Source: a virus (taxonomy: Duplodnaviria; Heunggongvirae; Uroviricota; Caudoviricetes). Taken from it: DNA of 38,912 bases. The translations under genes and the position numbers were made by a program. Where the stretch lies: IMG/VR virus record IMGVR_UViG_2740892107_000002. The stretch is one strand, 5' to 3'. Under the pieces are notes generated by a model. It ran no database searches and was not told where the DNA came from. It was given only the letters and a program-made list of their open reading frames with translations. Positions 12,302 to 38,912 of this stretch are shown piece by piece. Positions within the stretch are counted from its first letter, which is position 1. Every line of letters begins with the position of its first letter.

Positions 12302-12719
12302 CTATGATTTGTCGCCGTACTCGCTTTTTATTTGCTCTTCAGCCTGCTCCAGCCACATCTCCAGATCGTCAGTATCGAGGGCATCAATCTCCCCCGGCTG
12401 AAACCGGAACCATCTCGCCAGCAGCCCCTGCGCCTGCGTCAGCGCCCTAGTTGCTCTCACCCATCCCCGTGATGAGCTGAAATCGTTTCTGTAACTGCAG
12501 GTAATCAGCCAGATCCATATTGTCGAGATCTTCCGGGAGAAGACCAGTACTGCGGGCAATCAGCGGTTCGTCCCAGTCTGCCGGGTTTTTGCTGATTTTG
12601 CGCACCTGCTTCAGGTCTTTTACCGTCAGGCGTTTCAGTTCAACCTGCTCAATTCTGGTGCCTGCAGCAGTGGTGAAGGGATAAGACAATTTAAAAGTAT
12701 CGGATGGGGTCTGTGACAT
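12302..12719 (-). CDS. tail assembly chaperone, frameshift-extended form (programmed +1/-2 frameshift)
   Basis: ORF 12302..12559 (+1 frame) overlaps the 3' end of 12447..12719; candidate shift sites ACG GGG ATG GGT or AAC TAG G at the short-form stop; conserved arrangement upstream of tape measure genes. Confidence 0.6.
12447..12719 (-). CDS. tail assembly chaperone, short form (Mu gp41-like)
   Basis: 90 aa ORF directly upstream of the tape measure; overlapped at its 3' end by a second ORF in the +1 frame. Confidence 0.75.
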   Translation of the reverse strand: MSQTPSDTFKLSYPFTTAAGTRIEQVELKRLTVKDLKQVRKISKNPADWDEPLIARSTGLLPEDLDNMDLADYLQLQKRFQLITGMGESN

Positions 12720-12794
12720 GATTGTGCTCCTGTGTAAGTTCAGGGCAGTATGTCGGGAGAAGCGCGTGACGGATATTAAAGGAGATTAAGAAGA

Positions 12795-12810
12795 AGGGGC
12801 CGGAGCCCCT
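12795..12810 (-). terminator. GC hairpin (GGGGC-loop-GCCCC) followed by T-rich tract on the late strand
   Basis: Minus strand AGGGGCTCCGGCCCCT then TCTTCTTAATCT; could act as an attenuator within the tail operon. Confidence 0.3.
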
Positions 12811-12816
12811 GTGATG

Positions 12817-13065
12817 TCAGCAAGTGCGAAACCCCTTGCAGTTACGCAGGAAAGCGATGAGAAGCGTCTTTCCCTCAGATTTGCCGGTGCCGGAGAACCA
12901 GTGGTCGGGAGGCTCCCATGCTTCAATCAAATCCGCCAGTTTGCGGGCCTTTGAACGTGTGCAGTCAATCGGGTCATTGGTTTTACGGGTATTAAAAAGG
13001 GTTTCCACCCCCCGGAATATCAAGGAGGGTAAACCACGTACCATTTGACATGCCCAGTGCCGCAC
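12817..13065 (-). CDS. hypothetical small protein (GTG start), low confidence
   Basis: 82-aa ORF in the late-gene orientation between tube and chaperone; no recognisable family and no clear RBS. Confidence 0.25.
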   Translation of the reverse strand: MRHWACQMVRGLPSLIFRGVETLFNTRKTNDPIDCTRSKARKLADLIEAWEPPDHWFSGTGKSEGKTLLIAFLRNCKGFRTC

Positions 13066-13101
13066 ATCGTCTTCCTTTATCCGTCAGTTCAACACTCATC
13101 G

Positions 13102-27749: not shown

Positions 27750-28514
27750 ATGAAAATGCAGACATTACCCATCGTGCCGTGGATTGGTGGCAAACGCCGC
27801 CTTGCAAAACACATTCTGCCGCTGTTTCCGGCGCATGAATGTTATGTGGAGCCGTTTTGTGGGGCAGCAGCGCTCTATTTTCTTAAGACACCCGGCAAGA
27901 TCGAAGTCATCAATGATATCAACGGTGAACTGGTGAATCTGTACCGGGTGGTAAAGCATCACCTGGAAGAATTTGTCCGCCAGTTCAAATGGGCGCTGGT
28001 CAGCCGTCAGATCTACAAATGGCTGCAGATCACCCCGGAAGAAACACTGACGGATATCCAGCGTGCGGCACGGTTCTACTACCTTCAGAAGCAGGCGTTT
28101 GGCGGCAAGGTGGCAGAGCACAGCTTCGGTACCTCCACCACATCCCCGCCACGCTTCAACCTGCTACGTATTGAAGAAGAACTGTCAGCGGCACACCTGC
28201 GGCTTTCCAGAACAGTCATAGAACACATGGACTGGCAACAGTGCATTGAGCGTTATGATCGTCCGCACACGCTGTTCTACTGCGACCCACCGTACCTGGG
28301 TACGGAAGGCTATGGTGTGGATTTTCCTGAAGGGAACTACTCGCGGCTGGCAGAGCTGGCCCGGTGCATCAGAGGAAAAATGATAATTTCGGTGAACGAC
28401 ATCCCGCAGATGCGCGAGGTGTTCACTGGACTGAACATACAGACAGTGAATATCAACTACAGTCTGGCGGGTAAACCCACGCCGCGCCGTGAACTGCTAA
28501 TCTGCAACTTCTGA
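27750..28514 (+). CDS. DNA N6-adenine methyltransferase (Dam family), orphan
   Basis: EPFCGAAALYF (motif I-like) and CDPPYLG (DPPY catalytic motif); ATG 27750 chosen over the upstream extension; no adjacent restriction endonuclease candidate. Confidence 0.8.
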   Translation: MKMQTLPIVPWIGGKRRLAKHILPLFPAHECYVEPFCGAAALYFLKTPGKIEVINDINGELVNLYRVVKHHLEEFVRQFKWALVSRQIYKWLQITPEETLTDIQRAARFYYLQKQAFGGKVAEHSFGTSTTSPPRFNLLRIEEELSAAHLRLSRTVIEHMDWQQCIERYDRPHTLFYCDPPYLGTEGYGVDFPEGNYSRLAELARCIRGKMIISVNDIPQMREVFTGLNIQTVNINYSLAGKPTPRRELLICNF

Positions 28515-28630: not shown

Positions 28631-28987
28631 TCAGCCTGCGATTTTTCCTGGTTTTGGCTGAGTATAGAATCGCCCAATCTCAAGAAATGAGCGTTGTTGG
28701 TCTGGTGTCATGTCGTCAAAAGTATCTATTAGTTTTTGTTTTTCTGGGGAAATTTGATTCTGGTTTCTAGTCATACCATCTGTGCTCATTCCAGTGAGCA
28801 ACCAATTTACATCAACATTAAACTCTTGATGCATCTTTAACAGAAACTCCCCTCCAGGCATCGCCTTTCCATTTTCAATCTGACTGATACCACCATTAGA
28901 AATACCTAAACGAGCTGCAAATTCTCTCTGGTTCAACCCTGCTTTCTTCCTCACAGAAATAACGCGCTCTCCTATATCTTTGCTCAT
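28631..28987 (-). CDS. prophage repressor (XRE-family HTH, Mu c analogue)
   Basis: N-terminal HTH (LNQREFAARLGISNGGISQIENGK); divergent from the early operon; low-GC gene; operator half-site overlaps its start codon. Confidence 0.75.
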   Translation of the reverse strand: MSKDIGERVISVRKKAGLNQREFAARLGISNGGISQIENGKAMPGGEFLLKMHQEFNVDVNWLLTGMSTDGMTRNQNQISPEKQKLIDTFDDMTPDQQRSFLEIGRFYTQPKPGKIAG

Positions 28988-29004
28988 AAAAGTGAATCTC
29001 TATC

Positions 29005-29035
29005 TTGATATGCTCATAATTATGAGCAATAATCT
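29005..29035 (+). promoter_or_regulatory. early promoter (Pe-like) with an 18-bp perfect palindromic operator in the spacer
   Basis: TTGATA (-35) - TGCTCATAATTATGAGCA (29011..29028) - AATAAT (-10), about 45 bp upstream of the ner-like gene; half-site TGCTCATAA repeats at 28981..28989. Confidence 0.6.
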
Positions 29036-29080
29036 AACACATATAAGGCAAACATCATTGCATCAACAAAGGAGACAACG

Positions 29081-29269
29081 ATGACTGCAGAACAAGTCAA
29101 AGCTCTCTTCCGCCAGCGCGGGATCACTTTCACCCGCTGGGCAGAAGAAAACGGCTACAACCGCAATGAGGTATACCGCGTTCTCAACGGGCAGACCAAA
29201 GCCCGTTACGGTAAATCCCATGAAATCGCCGTGAAGTTGGGACTGAAATCAACAGCTCAGGCGGCCTAA
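29081..29269 (+). CDS. Ner/Cro-like early DNA-binding regulator
   Basis: 62 aa, first gene of the early operon, AAGGAG RBS; HTH-like; family call tentative. Confidence 0.55.
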   Translation: MTAEQVKALFRQRGITFTRWAEENGYNRNEVYRVLNGQTKARYGKSHEIAVKLGLKSTAQAA

Positions 29270-29321
29270 ATATTTTGAGTCTTTGTAAAAGGTTATCACA
29301 TATCGCAAAAGAGGTATGCAG

Positions 29322-29630
29322 ATGAGTAAGACGAATGTTTCAAGCTCCGGCAGTCGCATCCTCCGGGTACTCAAAGCGCTGCGCGGTCATGCCCTGAACG
29401 GTATTTCTAACGGTGAACTGGCGACAGCACTGCACGAGTCACCGGCAAACATCAACCGGGCACTCAACACCCTCATTGAAGAAGGGCTGGCTCTGAAACT
29501 GGAGAACGGACGTTTTGCACCGGGCATCCAGTTACTGCAGATCGCCATGGCCCACAGTAACGAGATGGCACGTGCACAGGATCGTATTAACGAAATTAAC
29601 CAACGTGTCATTTCAGGTAGTCGTTTGTAA
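29322..29630 (+). CDS. winged-helix (IclR-like HTH) DNA-binding protein
   Basis: RILRVLKALRGHALNGISNGELATALHESPANINRALNTLIEEGLA; start taken at the second ATG for RBS spacing (the track ORF begins at 29316). Confidence 0.5.
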   Translation: MSKTNVSSSGSRILRVLKALRGHALNGISNGELATALHESPANINRALNTLIEEGLALKLENGRFAPGIQLLQIAMAHSNEMARAQDRINEINQRVISGSRL

Positions 29631-30893: not shown

Positions 30894-32663
30894 ATGACCC
30901 CGGCACTGACTGAAAAACTGGTTGAAACAGCCCGCGCGGCACGTGACGCGGGGCATGGTAAACGCGGTGCAATATACGACGCTGCCTGTGCTGAACTTGG
31001 CATGTCCCGCGCCACTCTGCTGCGCAGGCTGAAGGAGGTATCTGTGACTGATAAACGCAAAAAACGCGCCGATGCCGGGCGCAGCGCCCTGACCCGCGAC
31101 GAAGCCGCGCTGATATCTGCCACACTGCGTGAGGCCACCCGCAAGAACGGTAAGCGTCTCTATTCCATCGCAGATGCAGTGGAAACCCTGCGGGCTAACG
31201 GCTTTATCACCGCAGGCAGAACAGATGAAACCACCAGTGAGTTTTTCCCGTTGTCTGAAGATGCCATCAGCCGTGCTCTGCGTAACTATGGCCTGCACCC
31301 GGAACAACTGGATGCCCCTGCACCACATACCGAAGTGGCCAGTCTGCATCCCAATCATGTCTGGCAGATTGACGCCTCACTCTGCACGCTTTACTACCTG
31401 AGCAATGGACATAAAGGGCTGCAGGTGATGGACAGCGCGAAGTTCTACAAGAACAAGCCCGCTAACCTTGCCCGTATCGCCAGTGACCGCGTGTGGAGTT
31501 ACGAGATTACCGACCATGCCAGCGGCTGGATTTACGTTGAGTATGTGACGGGCGCGGAATCAGGTGAGAACCTGTGTTCTGTGCTTATCAACGCCATGCA
31601 GGAGCGTGGCGGCGCAGACGTGCTGCACGGCGTGCCGAAAATACTCTATCTCGACCCCGGCTCGGCAAACACCGCGGGTATGACGAAAAACATGTGCCGC
31701 TCACTGGGCATCGACCTGATAGCGCACAAGCCGCATAACGCCCGCGCCACCGGACAGGTGGAAAAGGCGCGTGACATTATCGAACGCAAGCTGGAGCCGG
31801 GTCTGAAGTTCCGGCCGGTTCACAGTCTGGAAGAACTCAACGCGCTGGCCGCGAAATGGCGCAGCCACTTTAACGCCACGGCTGTTCACAGCCGCCACGG
31901 TAAAACCCGCACGGATATCTGGCTGAAGATTACTGCTGAGCAGCTGAAAAAAGCGCCTTCCGTTGAGGTATGTCGTGAACTGGCTGTGGCGGCACCAGAA
32001 CTCCGCAAAGTCACGCCAAAACTTCGTGTCTCGTTCCGGGGCACTGAATTTGACGTATCAACGGTACCGGGCGTACTGGTTGGTGAAAAACTGATGATTA
32101 CCCGTAACCCATGGCGCAGCGATGTGGCACAGGTGGTTCTGACCGGTGAGGACGGCCACGAGACGTTCTTCCTGGTCGAAGAGGTCAGAAAGAACGAGTT
32201 TGGCTTTGCTGAAGGCGCGGCGGTATTTGGCGAAAGTTACAAAGCCCTGCCGGAAACCCCGGCACAGATGGCGGCAAAAGAAACCGAAGCGCTGGTTACC
32301 GGTACAGACAACGCCGCAGATGCAGCCGCCGCACGCAAGGCGAAGGCGCTGCCGTTCGGCGGGCGGCTTGACCCGTATAAACATATCGACGACACCACAC
32401 TTCCGGCCTATATGCCGAAGCGTGGTCAGGCCTCTGACGTACGCGGGCCGCGCACTGAACAACGTCCCATGACTCATGTGGAGGCCGCGAAAGCCCTGCG
32501 CGATAAGTTCAGCGCCGACGGCCTTACCTGGACGCCGGAACATTACCGCCAGTTAACGGCACAGTACCCGGACGGCGTACCGGAAGCCGCACTGGATGAA
32601 GTCATGGCCACGCTGACCACACCGGCCCGCAGCAGTGTTATCAGCATTGTTAACGGCAACTGA
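30894..32663 (+). CDS. DDE transposase (Mu A analogue, integrase-core rve fold)
   Basis: 589 aa; N-terminal DNA-binding region followed by a catalytic core (...WQIDASL...YLDPGSANTA...), followed by a MuB-like ATPase gene. Confidence 0.85.
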   Translation: MTPALTEKLVETARAARDAGHGKRGAIYDAACAELGMSRATLLRRLKEVSVTDKRKKRADAGRSALTRDEAALISATLREATRKNGKRLYSIADAVETLRANGFITAGRTDETTSEFFPLSEDAISRALRNYGLHPEQLDAPAPHTEVASLHPNHVWQIDASLCTLYYLSNGHKGLQVMDSAKFYKNKPANLARIASDRVWSYEITDHASGWIYVEYVTGAESGENLCSVLINAMQERGGADVLHGVPKILYLDPGSANTAGMTKNMCRSLGIDLIAHKPHNARATGQVEKARDIIERKLEPGLKFRPVHSLEELNALAAKWRSHFNATAVHSRHGKTRTDIWLKITAEQLKKAPSVEVCRELAVAAPELRKVTPKLRVSFRGTEFDVSTVPGVLVGEKLMITRNPWRSDVAQVVLTGEDGHETFFLVEEVRKNEFGFAEGAAVFGESYKALPETPAQMAAKETEALVTGTDNAADAAAARKAKALPFGGRLDPYKHIDDTTLPAYMPKRGQASDVRGPRTEQRPMTHVEAAKALRDKFSADGLTWTPEHYRQLTAQYPDGVPEAALDEVMATLTTPARSSVISIVNGN

Positions 32664-32673
32664 GGAGGGAAAC

Positions 32674-33840
32674 ATGCTGGTACTGAAGCAGCAACTGAAA
32701 GAGGCCCGTATTCCACAGGCGGTGGTGGCGAGAGCTGTCGATGTTTCTGAGGCCACGCTGGCCCAGATTGTGAATCATAACGCGTGGCCCCGCACCAGCC
32801 CCGGAGAAGTGCGCCGGCGTCTTGCGTCCTGGCTGGAAAGTCAGGGGATTGATACAACGAAGAGTTTTGATGCTGTACAGGGCGCGGCCACGCCCCGTAC
32901 AGCGGGTACCACAGATAAAACGAGCCTCAGTGAGGAAGAGAATATGTTACTCAAAAAACAGGTGTTATTTCCAGCAACCAAAAAAGCGTTTGGTCTTTTC
33001 CGTGACCCGTTCGCCGACGAAGCCATGCAGGGTTCTGATGATGTGTTCACCACCCCGGATATTCGCTACGTGCGTGAGGCGTTGTACCAGACAGCCCGTC
33101 ATGGTGGGTTTATGGCCGTCATCGGTGAGTCCGGTGCGGGTAAATCCACGCTGCGCCGCGACCTGACTGAACGTATCAACCGCGAGAATGCGCCGGTAAT
33201 TGTTATCGAGCCATACATCATCGCTATGGAAGACAACGATGTGAAAGGGAAAACCCTGAAGGCAGCAGCGATTGCCGAAGCCATTATCAGTACCATCGCA
33301 CCACTGGAAAGCATCAGACGCAGTCAGGACGCCCGCTTTCGCCAGTTGCATCGCGTCCTGAAAGACAGCAGCCAGGCGGGGTTCAGCCACGTTCTGGTGA
33401 TTGAGGAGGCCCACAGTCTGCCCATTCCGACACTGAAACACCTCAAACGCTTTTTTGAGCTGGAGTCCGGTTTCAAAAAACTGCTGTCCATCGTGCTGAT
33501 TGGCCAGCCGGAACTGGCGACAAAACTGTCTGAACGCAATATGGAAGTCCGTGAAGTCGTTCAGCGCTGTGAGGTGGTCGAACTTCTGCCTCTGGACAAT
33601 AACCTTGAAGAGTTTCTGACGTTCAAACTGCAACGGGCCGGTAAACAACTGACGGACATTATGGACGCCAGCGCAGTGGATGCCATACGTGCCCGCCTGA
33701 GCAATCCGGGAAGTCATCGTAAAAATATGGTCAGCCTGCTGTATCCGCTGGCCGTCAGTAACCTGGTAATAGCCGCCATGAATCTGGCCGCTGAAATCGG
33801 GGTTCCACAGGTCAACGCTGACGTTGTCAAAGGGGTTTAA
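32674..33840 (+). CDS. transposition ATPase (Mu B / TniB-like AAA+)
   Basis: Walker A GESGAGKST, Walker B-like HVLVIEEAH; GGAGG RBS before ATG 32674; the track ORF starts earlier at 32635. Confidence 0.85.
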   Translation: MLVLKQQLKEARIPQAVVARAVDVSEATLAQIVNHNAWPRTSPGEVRRRLASWLESQGIDTTKSFDAVQGAATPRTAGTTDKTSLSEEENMLLKKQVLFPATKKAFGLFRDPFADEAMQGSDDVFTTPDIRYVREALYQTARHGGFMAVIGESGAGKSTLRRDLTERINRENAPVIVIEPYIIAMEDNDVKGKTLKAAAIAEAIISTIAPLESIRRSQDARFRQLHRVLKDSSQAGFSHVLVIEEAHSLPIPTLKHLKRFFELESGFKKLLSIVLIGQPELATKLSERNMEVREVVQRCEVVELLPLDNNLEEFLTFKLQRAGKQLTDIMDASAVDAIRARLSNPGSHRKNMVSLLYPLAVSNLVIAAMNLAAEIGVPQVNADVVKGV

Positions 33841-33842
33841 TA

Positions 33843-34112
33843 ATGAAATCCACCACAGGTATCAACCAGCAAATCAGCAAAGTGCAGTCAGCCATTATGG
33901 CGCTTAAGGCGACGAACACGGATGTACAAAGCATCACCATCAGGGGTAACAAACCTGTCATCCGCGTTTCCCGGAGTGCGCATTGCATGCGCATGCTTGA
34001 GCAGGGAAAGGCCTGTTATCTGTATACCGGTCATGACCACAGGGGACATTTCCGTCAGGGCGTTTTCGAACTGCACGGCTGTCGCGTCGTGTGGCCGGAA
34101 TCTTTGTGGTAA
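33843..34112 (+). CDS. hypothetical protein (Mu kil position)
   Basis: 89 aa immediately after the B-like gene. Confidence 0.45.
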   Translation: MKSTTGINQQISKVQSAIMALKATNTDVQSITIRGNKPVIRVSRSAHCMRMLEQGKACYLYTGHDHRGHFRQGVFELHGCRVVWPESLW

Positions 34113-34139
34113 TCAGCACAACAGGAGGAGTCATAAAAT

Positions 34140-34670
34140 ATGGCAAAAAGTACAAAAGGGGCAAAACGTATCAAAGCCGCAGCAGCACTCTGGGTGCCGG
34201 GGACACGCGAAGAGGTCATTGAGGGAATCAGACTGCTTGGTGACGCGCAACGTGAACTGGTCAGGGCTGAAACAGAAATGAATGACACCATTGGCGACAT
34301 CACTGCACGTTATGCCCCGCTCACCGAGAGCCTGAAAAAACGCATGGCCGAACTGCAGTCCGGTATCCAGACATGGTGTGAGGCGCACCGTGATGAACTG
34401 ACCGGCAACGGGAAGGTGAAGTTCGCTAACCTCACCACCGGCGAGGTGCAGTGGCGAAACCGTCCGCCGTCAGTCAGCATTCGCGGGGCGGATAATGTCA
34501 TTGAACTGCTGAGACGTCTGGGGCTTGAGCGCTTTATTCGTGTAAAAGAGGAAATAAATAAAGACGCTATCCTGAATGAAAAAGAGGCCGTGAAAAATAT
34601 TCCCGGTATTTCCATTAAAAGCGACATTGAGGATTTTTCAATAATTCCTTTTGAGCAGGATGTGCAGTAA
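34140..34670 (+). CDS. gam: host-nuclease inhibitor Gam (Mu Gam-like DNA end-binding protein)
   Basis: Strong similarity to Mu Gam as recalled (RIKAAAA..., WCEAHRDELT, RPPSVSIRG, LERFIRVKEEINKDAIL, DFSIIPFEQ); AGGAGG RBS. Confidence 0.9.
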   Translation: MAKSTKGAKRIKAAAALWVPGTREEVIEGIRLLGDAQRELVRAETEMNDTIGDITARYAPLTESLKKRMAELQSGIQTWCEAHRDELTGNGKVKFANLTTGEVQWRNRPPSVSIRGADNVIELLRRLGLERFIRVKEEINKDAILNEKEAVKNIPGISIKSDIEDFSIIPFEQDVQ

Positions 34671-34767
34671 ACACACCACGTTAATTATTTAATAAAAACA
34701 TTTTCTTTTTTATTCCGACGTCAGCGCCGCGGGCTTCTGCACGCCGGAAACAGAGGAGAATTAAATC

Positions 34768-34962
34768 ATGATATTTAAATGTATTCAGTGCGAGAGGGAT
34801 ATAACAGCCCTGCGTTTTCACAGCGCCATCGCCGTGATGTCCGGTAAATACCACATCCCTGCGGTACGCGTCACCCTGGTCTGCCCGTACTGCAGCCAGC
34901 ATTTTTCGGCAGACGTGCCCGTCATGGAATTCTCCCGCCCTGACAGGGAGGACTCGCAATGA
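34768..34962 (+). CDS. small zinc-ribbon protein (CxxC...CxxC)
   Basis: 64 aa with CIQC and CPYC pairs; AGGAGA RBS. Confidence 0.5.
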   Translation: MIFKCIQCERDITALRFHSAIAVMSGKYHIPAVRVTLVCPYCSQHFSADVPVMEFSRPDREDSQ

Positions 34963-35231
34963 TTACCCCACAGGAAGCACGACAGCGCACCCGAACCCTT
35001 GTTGAACACTATGTCAACGAGTGTGAATGCCGCGACCTCACCGATGTGAAGCACGTCCTGACGGCGCTAATCAGCATGACCGCTCAAGCCATTGTGGCGA
35101 CCAACGGAAAGGCGGCTGCCCTGCAGGTACTGGTGAACACACTAACCCACACGGCAGCGCATGAGGTGCCGTACCGGATGGAAACCACTGCAGAAGGCGG
35201 CCTGCACATCACCGTCAGCCGGAAGCACTGA
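34959..35231 (+). CDS. hypothetical protein
   Basis: 90 aa, GGAGG RBS, overlapping stop/start. Confidence 0.5.
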   Translation: MITPQEARQRTRTLVEHYVNECECRDLTDVKHVLTALISMTAQAIVATNGKAAALQVLVNTLTHTAAHEVPYRMETTAEGGLHITVSRKH

Positions 35232-35240
35232 GGGCGCGGC

Positions 35241-35537
35241 ATGACACGGAACACCATACTCACCCGCACCGCCCTCTACCGTCTGGCCCTGCAGCGTTTC
35301 GGGCCGGACGCACAGGCCCTGAAACTGACAGAAGAGGCCGCTGAACTGGCGGCCAGTGCTGCCCGCAATCTGAACGGACAGGGCAGCGAAAGCGACCTCG
35401 CGGCAGAGCTGGCAGACGTGGAAATCATGACAGAGCAATTGCGCCTTCAGGGGATGGACCGGCTGATTGACTTCCACAAACAGAAAAAACTGGAACGTCT
35501 GGCTGCACGACTGGGCGTGATTTACACGAACGAGTAA
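35241..35537 (+). CDS. MazG-like nucleotide pyrophosphohydrolase (small all-alpha NTP-PPase)
   Basis: 98 aa; EEAAELAASAARNL...ELADVEIM pattern typical of MazG-type EExxE/D metal-binding helices. Confidence 0.55.
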   Translation: MTRNTILTRTALYRLALQRFGPDAQALKLTEEAAELAASAARNLNGQGSESDLAAELADVEIMTEQLRLQGMDRLIDFHKQKKLERLAARLGVIYTNE

Positions 35538-35551
35538 CCGGGAGGCATTCA

Positions 35552-35767
35552 ATGGCTGACATACTCAGGGAAATCACCGCATGGATACTGATTCTTACTG
35601 GCCTGGCGACATGCCTCAGTGCGGGGGCAGCCCTGGCTGCCCTGCTGATGCACATAACAACACAGTGGTTATGGGAAAAGCTTAAAGCAGCATACAGCCT
35701 GAAAGAGCTGTCCGACGCTGTCCGGGCATGGAAACGGCAGAAAAATACCGGAGATACAGAACAATGA
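35552..35767 (+). CDS. small membrane protein
   Basis: 71 aa, one TM helix (WILILTGLATCLSAGAALAALL); GGGAGG RBS. Confidence 0.5.
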   Translation: MADILREITAWILILTGLATCLSAGAALAALLMHITTQWLWEKLKAAYSLKELSDAVRAWKRQKNTGDTEQ

Positions 35768-36447
35768 CAGACCAGAATAAACACATTGAGAAACTGAAAA
35801 AGTTGCTGGCGCTGGCCGCATCCGGCAACCCGCACGAGGCCGCTCTGGCACTGTGCCGAGCCCGTAAACTGATGGATGTTCACGGCATCACACATTCCGA
35901 CATTGCTATGAGTGATATTGATGAAACCATCAGTCACTACTGGCCGACAGGCAGTCTCCGTCCACCGCGCTACATGCTGGGCCTGATGAACATCATCCGC
36001 GAGGTATTTGGTGTTAACTCCATCATTCACCCCGGCACGCATCCGTCTGTGGGGTTCTACGGCAACCGGGAACGTGCGGCACTGGCTGCATACACCTGGG
36101 AAGTGCTGGCCCGTCAGCTGAAAAAGGCGCGTCAGCAGTATATCAGTGCACAGAACAAAAGAATAAAAACCGCCACCCGCACCAGCCGTGGAGACCAGTT
36201 TGCCGAAGGCTGGGTGCTGGCCGTTATCAGTGAAATACAGTCCTTTGCCCTGACCGATGATGAGCGTGAACTGATGCAGCAGTGGCTGGAACATAAATAC
36301 CCGCAGACGCAAACCACCAGGGCGCGTAAACCGGGAAGAAGCCGCAATGGCGACGCCTCGCGCTATGCGGGGTTTCGTGAAGGGCAGAACGTCAGACTGC
36401 ACCGCCCGGTCAGTGGGCAGGAACAACAGAAACTGGAGGCCAGATGA
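35764..36447 (+). CDS. hypothetical early protein (DUF2786-like)
   Basis: Start at internal ATG 35764 (MTDQNKHIEKLKKLLALAASGNPHEAALA...) with RBS; the track ORF starts upstream at 35728. Confidence 0.5.
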   Translation: MTDQNKHIEKLKKLLALAASGNPHEAALALCRARKLMDVHGITHSDIAMSDIDETISHYWPTGSLRPPRYMLGLMNIIREVFGVNSIIHPGTHPSVGFYGNRERAALAAYTWEVLARQLKKARQQYISAQNKRIKTATRTSRGDQFAEGWVLAVISEIQSFALTDDERELMQQWLEHKYPQTQTTRARKPGRSRNGDASRYAGFREGQNVRLHRPVSGQEQQKLEAR

Positions 36448-36674
36448 TTACGCTATCAGGTAAAAGCCGGAAATTAAAAGCCTGCCGAATATCTGCCAGA
36501 TACCTTTTTGCCCGCGCCTTTTTTAAGAACGTCAGGCCGGGGATCACAATTGGTGTTATTGCCGGACGCGAACAGGTTGAAAAATACATGTCAGGTGCAT
36601 GGTGGAATAACGACCCTGTCATTGCTGCCCGTAATATTCATATCGAATGGGGAGGTATTCAGAATGACTACTGA
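36444..36674 (+). CDS. hypothetical protein
   Basis: 76 aa, GGAGG RBS, overlapping stop/start. Confidence 0.45.
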   Translation: MITLSGKSRKLKACRISARYLFARAFFKNVRPGITIGVIAGREQVEKYMSGAWWNNDPVIAARNIHIEWGGIQNDY

Positions 36675-36870
36675 AACCATTGTCTGTTTTCTTTTCTGGT
36701 ATATGTACGCAGGATCATGCAGCGCAAGACTTCATCGTTCCCTGGGCTATGGCAGGCACTACGACACCGCGCATTACATCCTGTACATGACCGCCGTCAT
36801 GTTGTTCTGGCCAGTCACCCTGCCAGCTGCAACCGACATTGTTGCCGACAGACTGAAAAAAAGGAGATGA
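36664..36870 (+). CDS. small membrane protein
   Basis: 68 aa with two hydrophobic helices; GGAGG RBS; ATG 36664 within the longer track ORF. Confidence 0.45.
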   Translation: MTTETIVCFLFWYMYAGSCSARLHRSLGYGRHYDTAHYILYMTAVMLFWPVTLPAATDIVADRLKKRR

Positions 36871-36871
36871 T

Positions 36872-37321
36872 ATGCAGAAAAAACGCCTGATACAGCTTAT
36901 CCATATTGCCCGTAATGAACTGGGTATGGATGAAGACACCTACCGCCAGATGTTACAGGGGCTGACCGGTAAAGCCTCAACCAAAGGAATGGATACCACA
37001 CAACTAAACTGCGTGCTGGAATCCATGAAAAAGAAAGGCTTTCGCGTTAAACCAGCCAGAAAAGCCAGCTCCGGTTTACCGCTGGATAACCATCCGCAGT
37101 CCAGGAAAATTCGTGCGCTATGGCTTGAAATGGCTGCTGCCGGCATTGTTCGTGACCGTTCAGAAAATGCATTAGCGAGGTGGATCAAGCGGGAAACGGG
37201 CATCAGCGCCCTGCGCTGGCTCAGTACTGAACAGGCAAGCAGTGTTATTGAGAAACTGAAGAAGTGGCAGCGCAGAGCTGCGGGAGTCAAACATGAGCGA
37301 CCTGAATCAGTTTCGAAGTAA
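36872..37321 (+). CDS. GemA-like protein (Mu gp16 family)
   Basis: 149 aa; N-terminal KKRLIQLIHIARNELGMDEDTYRQMLQ pattern; positioned directly before mor as in Mu. Confidence 0.65.
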   Translation: MQKKRLIQLIHIARNELGMDEDTYRQMLQGLTGKASTKGMDTTQLNCVLESMKKKGFRVKPARKASSGLPLDNHPQSRKIRALWLEMAAAGIVRDRSENALARWIKRETGISALRWLSTEQASSVIEKLKKWQRRAAGVKHERPESVSK

Positions 37322-37682
37322 GGGGCCGGAACTCCTGGTGGAACTGGCACAGCATACCTCTGAGACCGTTCGCGAGATTATTGATATTGAGCCCGAAGTT
37401 GCCGACCAGATTGGTCAGGCCGTCGCGAACCGAATGATGCAGGTCTGGGGCGGGCAAAACGTTTATTTCCCGATGGGCATGGTATGGAAGGTCAGTCAGC
37501 GCGACCGGGAAATCTTCAGGGAGTTTAACGGACGCAACCACCACGAACTGGCCCGCAAATTTGGTGTTTCGCTTCAGTGGGTCTACAGCGTGGTTAAGCG
37601 GGTAAGAAAAGAAGAACTGGATCGGATGCAGGGCAAGCTATTTGCTGATGAACCCGATGCAGATACGGAGAAAAAAGAGTAA
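37293..37682 (+). CDS. Mor/C-family transcriptional activator
   Basis: 129 aa; C-terminal HTH region (FNGRNHHELARKFGVSLQWVYSVVKRVRK) resembles Mu Mor; last gene of the early operon. Confidence 0.8.
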   Translation: MSDLNQFRSKGPELLVELAQHTSETVREIIDIEPEVADQIGQAVANRMMQVWGGQNVYFPMGMVWKVSQRDREIFREFNGRNHHELARKFGVSLQWVYSVVKRVRKEELDRMQGKLFADEPDADTEKKE

Positions 37683-37711
37683 TATCTGCAATCAGGCTGG
37701 CGCGAGTTCTG

Positions 37712-37768
<57 letters not shown>

Positions 37769-37769
37769 A

Positions 37770-37844
<75 letters not shown>

Positions 37845-37850
37845 CCATTT
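37845..37850. repeat. target-site duplication, right copy (CCATTT)
   Basis: CCATTT immediately after the CA terminus at 37844. Confidence 0.6.
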
Positions 37851-37861
37851 GTAACGAAGAA

Positions 37862-37887
37862 CAGCCAACCGTTGTGGCGGCTGGCTG
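37862..37887 (-). terminator. host araH (araFGH) terminator-like hairpin
   Basis: Minus strand CAGCCAGCC-N8-GGTTGGCTG followed by TTCTTCGTT, downstream of the araH stop and just outside the prophage. Confidence 0.4.
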
Positions 37888-37925
37888 TGGAGGAAAAAAG
37901 CGCTAAATTGTTGCAGAAAAAAGCA

Positions 37926-38912
37926 TCAGACAGTGCGTTTCGCTTTTTGCTTGTAACGGTCGAAGATCACCGCTGCCAGCAGGATTAAGCCGCGAACCAC
38001 GTACTGCGCGAAAGGAGAAATATTAAGCAGGTTCATGGCGTTCTCCACGGTGCCTAAAATTAAGATACCCGCCACCACATATGAGATTTTTCCGATGCCG
38101 CCTTTCAGAGAAACGCCACCTAAAACGCAGGCGGAGATCACAATCAGCTCATAACCAATCGACGTCATTGGCTGCCCACTGGTCATACGTGAAGCCAGAA
38201 TAATTCCGGCTATCGCTGATACCAGGCCAGAGAGAACAAAGATAATAATTTTGGTGCGAACAACCGGTACACCCGCCAGACGCGCAGCCTCTTCGTTCCC
38301 GCCAATCGCCAGGGTATTACGACCAAAGGTGGTTTTATTCAGCAGCAAGCCAAAGATGATCAAACACGCGACGGTGAGCCAGATTGGCGCAGGCAGACCG
38401 AACCAGTTGGCGTAACCAAGGGCAAAGAAGCTTTCATCTTCGATACCGACCGCTTTACCGTCTGAAATGATGTACGCCAGACCTCGAACAATCTGCATCG
38501 TTGCCAGTGTCGTGATCAGGGCATTTATTTTGAGTTTGGCGATAACAAAGCCATTGACCAGACCACAGAGAATGCCCAGCAGCAACCCCGCTGCCACGCC
38601 AATCCACAGGCTTTCAGTCAGATTAATAACCACCGCCGTGGTGACACCCGCACAGGCAATTACGGAGGCGACAGAAAGGTCAAAGTCACCGGAAGCAAGG
38701 CAGAACAACATGCCACAAGCCACCATCCCCGACATGGAAATTGCCAGGCCCAACCCTTTCATATTAATGAAGGTGGCAAAATTTGGGACAAAAATGGCAC
38801 AGGCGATAAAAAGCACCGCAAACACCACCAGCATGCCGTACTGATCCCAGATACGCCCGAAGCTGAATGACGACTTAGGTGCGCCAGAACCCGATGTAGA
38901 AACAGAAGACAT
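37926..38912 (-). CDS. araH: L-arabinose ABC transporter permease
   Basis: 328 aa, full length, matches AraH as recalled; multi-TM permease; ATG at 38912. Confidence 0.93.
   Translation of the reverse strand: MSSVSTSGSGAPKSSFSFGRIWDQYGMLVVFAVLFIACAIFVPNFATFINMKGLGLAISMSGMVACGMLFCLASGDFDLSVASVIACAGVTTAVVINLTESLWIGVAAGLLLGILCGLVNGFVIAKLKINALITTLATMQIVRGLAYIISDGKAVGIEDESFFALGYANWFGLPAPIWLTVACLIIFGLLLNKTTFGRNTLAIGGNEEAARLAGVPVVRTKIIIFVLSGLVSAIAGIILASRMTSGQPMTSIGYELIVISACVLGGVSLKGGIGKISYVVAGILILGTVENAMNLLNISPFAQYVVRGLILLAAVIFDRYKQKAKRTV

Follow-up and report, generated by a model that had tools for sequence, protein, structure and literature searches.

Which functions are carried between the gene of a MuB-like ATPase and gemA, and what they would do for the phage, is the question raised by positions 33843-36870 of the virus record IMGVR_UViG_2740892107_000002, a stretch of 38,912 nt which is called the window below. 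The window was 100% identical to the chromosome of Escherichia coli EcPF7 (NZ_CP054232.1), and a complete transposable prophage of the BcepMu type, ~37 kb in length, was located at ~700-37844, between otsB and araH. Positions 33843-36870 very probably represent the semi-essential early region of this prophage, in which a conserved backbone and exchangeable cargo genes are combined as two layers.

Nine co-directional open reading frames (ORFs, g1 to g9; Table 1) on the plus strand filled the interval exactly from the start of g1 to the stop of g9, and the same nine coding sequences were called by the Prokaryotic Genome Annotation Pipeline (PGAP) in the identical EcPF7 record. The block was bordered by the MuB-like ATPase gene on the left and by gemA and mor on the right, all in the orientation of the transposase gene. 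Five junctions had gaps of 1-27 nt (B/g1 2; g1/gam 27; g4/g5 9; g5/g6 14; g9/gemA 1) and four had overlaps of 4-11 nt (g3/g4 4; g6/g7 4; g7/g8 4; g8/g9 11), the sole sizeable gap in the block being the 97 nt between gam (g2) and g3. The true start of g7 was 35764, giving 227 amino acids (aa), instead of the longest-ORF start at 35728. Promoter-like and terminator-like sites were not above shuffled sequence (3 against 2.9 and 3 against 5.8, respectively), and no Rfam RNA family was found in 33000-38000.

The nine tightly coupled genes of the original prediction were confirmed, and support was obtained for its proposal that the block is the counterpart of the Mu semi-essential early region, with its position between the MuB-like ATPase gene and gemA/mor and with homologues of both kil and gam, by which a Mu-type semi-essential region is recognised. 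The phage was of the BcepMu type (Bcepmuvirus), with an operon reading outward to the end, and not Mu sensu stricto. Early proteins resembling those of BcepMu (identity of 59% for the B-like protein with gp08, 44% for GemA with gp02 and 54% for Mor with gp01) and an early operon ending with mor at the genome end, which together mark the Bcepmuvirus type, were both found.

All nine proteins matched PHROG families end to end (E 1e-34 to 1e-77). The ratio of nonsynonymous to synonymous differences per site (pN/pS) within E. coli was 0.02-0.05 for gam, 0.02-0.20 for g5 (three comparators), 0.11-0.13 for g7 and 0.14 for g3, and the strongest purifying selection in the block was on g5, g7 and gam. 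Against other genera, the corresponding rate ratio (dN/dS) was 0.14-0.29 for g3, g4, g5, g7 and g8; for g1 and g9 pS was saturated in this comparison, with pN far below pS. Coding constraint on g6 was seen within E. coli (pN/pS 0.47), between-genus support being absent. When the nine proteins were compared by BLAST with the early proteins of Mu and BcepMu, Gam was the sole link, and the NCBIfam search of the nine gave nothing useful. For g3, g4, g5, g6, g7 and g8, iterative hidden Markov models (HMMs) gave no partner in Mu or in BcepMu; that of g9 drifted into gemA, the longest-ORF caller having fused the frames, and its result was discarded.

Across the whole interval, 98.6% nucleotide identity was observed with Escherichia phage PhiKM (PQ738613), which is classed as Bcepmuvirus. 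Among 5,426 complete E. coli genomes the region was present in 629; it was located at many different places in the chromosome, sometimes interrupting genes, and truncated host genes at some of the other copies were hybB and the gene of a phosphopantetheine-binding protein. These varied flanks and truncated genes were consistent with transposition into near-random sites. Roughly every ninth complete E. coli genome contains the prophage family, clinical isolates being numerous among these, and its early genes would be expressed widely whenever it is induced.

Kil, Gam and the other backbone genes

For g1, no Pfam or NCBIfam match was obtained, and its family phrog_2041 is labelled 'unknown'. An HMM was built from the ORFs following the B-like gene in related loci, Mu proteins being never included, and it matched Mu gp5 Kil (E 2e-9, 34.9 bits, Kil residues 8-74). 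In addition, the 20-sequence alignment of the g1 family was aligned to Mu Kil by hhalign with a probability of 94.3% and E 1e-7. Family phrog_2041 was matched by 19 of the 20 members, and PHROG Kil families were matched by some of them too: phrog_6381 by 5, phrog_2743, into which Mu Kil itself falls, by 3, and phrog_2679 by 1. By profile comparison g1 is a homologue of Mu Kil, and its effect on the host is expected from Mu; expression of Mu kil is described as leading to spherical cells in the passage of PMC3961180 that cites Waggoner 1989. BcepMu gp07, at the same position after B, aligned with the g1 family at E 1.2e-4 and a probability of 55%, and is a probable Kil-family relative. In at least 26 related loci, the gene directly following the B-like one was g1-like. 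Searches with g1 and g5 by tblastn against the phage collection returned 3-6 records only, the collection being too sparse for this family. With a Kil relative in the first place after B in Mu, BcepMu and the present family, a widespread 'hypothetical protein' could be named (PHROG 2041, NCBI 'HI_1482 family') and would have a phenotype that can be tested.

The next gene, g2, was recognised as gam, with 138.7 bits against a cut-off of 28.3 over positions 1-148 of the 149 of profile PF07352, and its product was 61% identical to Mu Gam. DNA similarity of 68% to Mu was found over 34373-34709, and DNA similarity to a Pantoea relative was lost over ~34085-34698, around the Gam module, and was back at ~34699. 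The slot after the kil-like gene was compared in 80 loci encoding a g7 relative (one genome per species scanned), which came from Gamma-, Beta- and Alphaproteobacteria and a few other groups, with gemA nearby in 65 and mor in 51. DUF3164 only was found in 42 of them, Gam only in 21, neither in 17 and both in none (hypergeometric p 2.8e-9, uncorrected for relatedness). Among the 39 loci having both B and gemA, exactly one of the two was present in 38 (DUF3164 in 26, Gam in 12). Swaps were seen between near relatives, namely between two prophages of Serratia sp. Ag1, and between E. coli and Pantoea, whose B proteins were 92-94% identical. In close relatives from other genera the slot was occupied by DUF3164; loci of the comparison include L006:3795-4406 (a Pantoea stewartii relative, with DUF3164), L017:3821-4432 and L024:4019-4540. 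The strict alternation of Gam and DUF3164 in one slot suggests that the two are functionally analogous, and a specific proposal is obtained for DUF3164, which is widespread and has no assigned function. The literature search returned incidental mentions of DUF3164 and DUF2786 only, and nothing on DUF7168.

The zinc ribbon that had been proposed in this block was retained for g3, in which, among 26 homologues, each Cys of the knuckles C5-x2-C8 and C39-P-x-C42 showed a conservation of 90% or more; the matches to Pfam zinc-finger models were all sub-threshold. It was found in 21-23 related loci. The GenBank record of PhiKM gives a minus-strand hypothetical protein (34681-34959) where RefSeq has g3 on the plus strand. 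The plus strand was favoured, since pN/pS was 0.14 for it and 1.5 for the antisense ORF of PhiKM, and since phrog_3401 was matched over the full length. A counterpart of g3 in Mu gp6, which has a 'CPxC' resemblance, was considered and rejected (E 0.96, iterative HMM without a partner).

The protein of g5 had been called MazG-like, and this label could be kept at the superfamily level, from its motif and PHROG family, but not at the level of Pfam thresholds. The label of phrog_2245 is 'nucleoside triphosphate pyrophosphohydrolase', a name also given to g5 by PGAP in some genomes. In the motif EExxE…ExxD, E31, E32, E56 and D59 were invariant in 20 close homologues and E35 was changed in one; in an alignment of 108 sequences E31 was invariant, and E32, E35, E56 and D59 were each conserved in at least 90%. 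The AlphaFold2 model (predicted local distance difference test, pLDDT, 84) placed the acidic motif on consecutive helices 22-44 and 50-91. The top Foldseek match of this model was human DCTPP1, a weak one (probability 0.94, E 0.19, TM-score 0.51), and HisE, Bacillus MazG, AF1178, YpjD and E. coli MazG were also in the list, all with weak E-values. No Pfam model among MazG, MazG-like and PRA-PH was reached above its curated threshold. Of the 108 family members, E 1e-3 was reached by 6 for MazG, 2 for MazG-like and 2 for PRA-PH, 10 in total. Sequence and profile searches of the Protein Data Bank (PDB) gave no meaningful matches for g5 and g7. The substrate of g5 would most likely be of the nucleoside triphosphate (NTP) type, a non-canonical dNTP/NTP or an alarmone. 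From a member of the superfamily, Mg2+-dependent cleavage of an NTP into NMP and PPi is expected. The exhaustive profile search collected 10,432 representatives at E <=1e-3, proteins of ~90-100 aa; the small MazG-like family is very large in number of clusters, and its biochemistry is uncharacterised.

Two candidate relatives of g5 were rejected. The pyrophosphatase gp06 of BcepMu showed no sequence similarity in direct comparison. An anti-defence MazG of the Atd1 type was rejected because of no family-level similarity to the likely Atd1 ORF, QQG33500.1 of phage PcCB7V (hhalign E 0.18, probability 0.3%, motif region only), which was taken as Atd1 by annotation and position, two genes from the nucleotidyltransferase gene. 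A protein collection clustered at 90% identity files g4 (90 aa) with MazG-like g5 proteins of 98-101 aa (representative P0001) despite their unrelated sequences; the grouping seems to be an artefact of clustering, for which an ORF call that fused the two may be responsible.

Conservation within the block was highest for g7, with 90.3 bits for PF23771 (cut-off 25.5) and 39.3 bits for PF10979 (cut-off 23.9). Its model (pLDDT 86, predicted TM-score 0.76) consisted of an N-terminal helical hairpin, a beta-alpha-beta-beta-alpha core and then long helices, and the fold recurred in many unrelated uncharacterised phage proteins. A KH domain (beta-alpha-alpha-beta-beta-alpha with GXXG) was rejected, the second helix being absent and no GXXG being apparent. 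The protein possibly binds nucleic acid. The view that only Gam is clearly recognisable in the block was not quite right, since g1 is a Kil homologue (hhalign 94%) and g7 passes Pfam for DUF2786 and DUF7168. The profile and structure-based searches that had been recommended gave the Kil, Gam and MazG-superfamily assignments, but about half of the genes were still without a function. On the opposite strand, an ORF of 333 aa spans g5-g7 (35425-36426, minus strand); it is annotated nowhere and g7 is under purifying selection on the plus strand, so it is probably spurious.

Exchangeable genes and the weighing of alternatives

Where B and gemA were both present (39 loci), g7 was found in 38, a kil-like gene in 23, a g9-like gene in 15, g3 in 13 and g5 in 12, and every other ORF cluster outside the Gam/DUF3164 slot in five at most. 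The genes g4, g6 and g8 were essentially confined to the E. coli lineage: in the 80 loci, relatives of g4 were found once at the BLAST level and six times at the HMM level, homologues of g8 in two (dN/dS 0.14-0.18 against them), and g6 in none. In 15-17 loci, a homologue of g9 with 37-43% identity stood at the corresponding place. Within E. coli, strain MS20645 lacked g6, had a diverged g4 allele (pS 0.33, pN/pS 0.5; the dN/dS of g4 against Apirhabdus was 0.29) and a very different g9 allele. Strain HN68 had an extra ORF of 127 aa (phrog_18739/phrog_250, unknown function; no Pfam), then a diverged g6, and again a very different g9. In other E. coli strains g9 was replaced by a very diverged allele (pS ~0.87), and synonymous divergence jumped from 0.02 to 0.9 between neighbouring genes. 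Pfam scans of the rarer ORFs in the same slots of relatives returned HU and DUF2528 only. Because of this gene turnover within E. coli and the break of similarity around the Gam module against Pantoea, the block is read as a conserved backbone (g1, the Gam/DUF3164 slot, g3, g5 and g7) with exchangeable cargo (g4, g6, g8 and g9).

The junction between g5 and g7 was observed as a variable slot within E. coli (window 35537-35767; L086:2599-2904; L087:2898-3489). Small membrane proteins had been expected in the region. With a cut-off of 1.6 for a membrane segment, g6 had a hydropathy maximum (KD19) of 2.0 over residues ~8-33 and one clear transmembrane helix; g9 was a borderline case at 1.5, for which a membrane location is probable.

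That g4, g6, g8 and g9 are partly annotation noise and not genes is highly improbable. All four are short and carry the name 'hypothetical' in public records, and none of them has a Pfam family; in addition, g8 had a pN/pS above 1 within E. coli, although from ~6 substitutions only, and g9 was under the hydropathy cut-off. Each of them nevertheless had a full-length PHROG match (E 1e-41 to 1e-55), their start and stop codons interlocked with those of the neighbours, and PGAP called all four. The dN/dS of g4 and g8 against other genera was 0.14-0.29, and the pN of g9 (0.43) was far below its saturated pS (0.82), so that g6 alone lacks between-genus support. The original prediction laid emphasis on counter-defence and on a MazG-like enzyme that could manipulate nucleotide signals, ideas that stay hypothetical, no evidence of counter-defence having been met. 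In this rival reading, the block would be an island of counter-defence that mainly disarms host immunity, with Gam acting against RecBCD, g5 destroying alarmones or immune nucleotides like Atd1, and g4, g6, g8 and g9 serving anti-defence or superinfection exclusion. The phage MazG-like protein Atd1 degrades ppGpp, and cells are protected by it from the toxicity of TIR-STING and retron-TIR (bioRxiv 10.1101/2022.06.09.495361). By their Pfam and PHROG names, proteins of the Gam type shield the ends of DNA against nucleases of the host. The pN/pS near 0.5 of g4, g6 and g9, their allele replacement and presence or absence among E. coli strains, and a g5-g7 slot that accepts different small ORFs point in the same direction; such fast evolution and turnover is compatible with roles in host interaction. 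However, g5 was without specific similarity to the likely Atd1 ORF and the purifying selection on it was strong, as on a housekeeping enzyme. No known anti-defence family was met in the Pfam, PHROG and NCBIfam searches, none of the nine proteins matched a defence-related model of PADLOC, a library of defence systems and not of anti-defence proteins, and for the small ORFs the argument is from evolutionary pattern alone. We regard this island as unlikely. Its extended form is improbable as well, namely a counter-defence and takeover toolkit in which g5 would degrade an alarmone or immune nucleotide and so represent an Atd1-like function in another lineage, unrelated to the first, the small ORFs strain-specific anti-defence or exclusion factors, and DUF3164 an undescribed Gam analogue.

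A module supporting DNA transactions would explain the conserved genes differently: they would serve replicative transposition and the handling of linear DNA, with Gam or DUF3164 holding the ends, g3 and the KH-like g7 binding nucleic acid, g5 sanitising the dNTP pool, and Kil being the only host-directed gene. In its favour, BcepMu has HU-like and single-stranded DNA-binding protein (SSB)-like genes and a pyrophosphatase in the same interval, Rheinheimera relatives have an HU-family gene there, Gam and DUF3164 exclude each other, selection is strongest on g5, g7 and gam, and g7, with its KH-like core, is nearly universal beside gemA. But the fold of g7 is not tied to transposition, being shared by many lytic phages that do not transpose, and the protein lacks an apparent GXXG motif; neither g3 nor g7 matched a DNA-binding family model above threshold, and the Mu semi-essential region is dispensable for transposition itself (PMC3325207). 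This module is a possible reading, although we would not expect it to be the right one.

Several points weigh against the reading of the block as the semi-essential early region with backbone and cargo. The early functions of the element are predicted from its sequence. The identity of g1 to Mu Kil is only ~15-27%, therefore its target may differ. All Foldseek E-values of g5 were at least 0.19 and none was 0.001 or below, its PDB profile matches were weak (best 5ie9, E 0.043), and it remained under the Pfam gathering score (best PRA-PH, 14.5 bits against 21.3, E 0.047). Five of the nine genes (g3, g4, g6, g8 and g9) were without a functional homologue, and g7 had a DUF label only. The cargo classification was drawn from 80 phylogenetically related loci with a crude ORF caller.

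As the semi-essential early region of the prophage, the block would be part of an early operon with the order ner-like gene, DUF3102 gene, transposase, B-like ATPase, the nine genes, gemA and mor. Gene structure, homologies, conservation and mosaicism were observed, and every biochemical activity and host effect in this scheme is inferred from Mu (PMC3325207, PMC3820752, PMC3961180) and from family membership. On induction or infection, the early transcript would run from transposase and B through the nine genes to gemA and mor, and the nine genes would probably be translated in a coupled fashion. Kil (g1) would stop normal growth and morphogenesis of the host, as expected from Mu Kil, and Gam would bind the ends of linear phage DNA and shield them from host exonucleases. 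By removing a nucleoside triphosphate-type molecule, g5 might keep the cell permissive for replicative transposition. Both g3 and g7 may bind nucleic acid, and the targets of the small variable proteins may be the membrane or host factors that differ between strains.

Neighbouring features of the prophage

The full structural module and both ends were present in the prophage. Tail, head and lysis genes were on the minus strand, a Gin-like recombinase and an invertible tail-fibre segment were also found in the element, and the early operon was on the plus strand, reading outward toward the element end. The right end was at window position 37844, ending …TCTAATCA, with host DNA beyond; five copies with different flanks were aligned, and similarity was lost after that base. 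The insertion junctions were at window ~633-803 and 37844.

Upstream of the early operon (27750-28514 and 28631-29630), a DNA adenine methylase, a divergent helix-turn-helix repressor-like gene and two small DNA-binding genes (ner-like) were observed, which are likely the immunity and early-promoter region controlling the genes studied here. At 12384-13099, two genes of the tail region are flagged as pseudogenes in RefSeq, a tail assembly chaperone with an internal stop and a frameshifted hypothetical; the internal stop may simply reflect the programmed frameshift that is usual in tail chaperone genes. In the 'partial genome' record of PhiKM (L001:10036-11293), unrelated DNA follows the mor-proximal end and is annotated as 'Fe2+ ABC transporter permease', then come tail-fibre genes. 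It may be host DNA packaged at a Mu-type genome end, or an assembly artefact.

Table 1. Features of the early operon and the right end of the prophage (window coordinates)
Feature	Position	Strand	Description and evidence
tnpA	30894-32663	+	transposase; early operon
MuB-like / ExeA-family AAA ATPase	32674-33840	+	left boundary; PGAP 'ExeA family protein'; 59% identical to BcepMu gp08
g1	33843-34112	+	89 aa; Kil-family protein, first gene after the B-like ATPase; phrog_2041 E 1e-36
g2 (gam)	34140-34670	+	176 aa; Mu-type Gam, putative Ku-like DNA-end-binding host-nuclease inhibitor; Pfam PF07352 E 1.9e-40; phrog_491 E 6.7e-73
97-nt spacer	34671-34767	.	right-hand joint of the Gam module; no RNA family match
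g3	34768-34962	+	64 aa; zinc ribbon (CxxC…CPxC); phrog_3401 E 1.6e-40, full length
g4	34959-35231	+	90 aa; small protein, almost lineage-specific; phrog_3691 E 7e-55; no Pfam family
g5	35241-35537	+	98 aa; small all-alpha MazG-superfamily NTP pyrophosphohydrolase-like protein; phrog_2245 E 2.8e-34
g6	35552-35767	+	71 aa; predicted single-pass membrane protein, variable slot; phrog_3958; hydropathy
g7	35764-36447	+	227 aa; DUF2786 (N-terminal helical hairpin) and DUF7168, most conserved gene of the block; Pfam above gathering scores
g8	36444-36674	+	76 aa; small protein, rare outside E. coli; phrog_3681 E 6.5e-55
g9	36664-36870	+	68 aa; small hydrophobic protein, fast evolving, just upstream of gemA; phrog_6436 E 1.2e-44
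gemA	36872-37321	+	right boundary; Pfam GemA E 8e-41; PGAP 'gp16 family'
mor	37293-37682	+	last early-operon gene; PGAP 'Mor transcription activator family'
Terminal 162 nt	37683-37844	.	after mor; ends …TCTAATCA

Comparison with known systems

Phage regions of this kind are known, and the present one is ordinary and had been sequenced before; the understanding of Mu-type phages is unchanged by it, with their annotation refined. New here are the Kil assignment of g1, the strand correction of g3 against PhiKM, the qualified MazG label, the dissection into backbone and cargo, and the alternation of Gam and DUF3164.

For g5, most of the named matches in the structure and profile searches were MazG/DCTPP1/HisE/YpjD-type families. 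Like the all-alpha NTP pyrophosphohydrolases (MazG, DCTPP1, HisE/PRA-PH, YpjD and iMazG), it is predicted to be helical, with EExxE followed by ExxD on the next helix, but its family is set apart from the curated all-alpha families, staying below every Pfam threshold and forming a large family of its own. With Atd1 of PcCB7V it shared the format of a small single-domain phage protein with an acidic motif of the MazG/PRA-PH type, the two differing at the family level.

The semi-essential region of Mu (kil to gemA, Mup05-Mup16) is likewise located after B and before gemA/mor, shares the strand of A and B, and is packed with small ORFs, among them small Cys-rich proteins (gp6 and gp13). A region of this type is by definition dispensable for forming plaques, with an effect on host viability and phage yield. 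It is co-transcribed with A and B, and its deletion restores host viability after infection (PMC3325207). Homologues common to both were Kil at the profile level, Gam (61% identical), GemA (36%) and Mor (30%). Between B and gemA there were nine genes here and eleven ORFs in Mu (Mup05-Mup15); Mu gp6-gp9 and gp11-gp15 had no detectable homologues in this block, and Mu was without MazG-like and DUF2786/DUF7168 genes. Unlike in Mu, and as in BcepMu, the transposase was of the Tn552/rve type, the B-like ATPase was of the ExeA type, and the operon read outward to the element end.

PhiKM carried the same nine genes, except that an antisense ORF was annotated for g3. In BcepMu, DUF3164 (gp05) was present where this element has Gam, a MazG-like pyrophosphatase (gp06) without BLAST similarity to g5 was located in the same region, and HU-like and SSB-like genes were found, with no HMM match to a DUF2786/DUF7168 gene. 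The early region of BcepMu (gp07-gp03, between gp08 and gp02) had the same architecture and orientation as the block described here.

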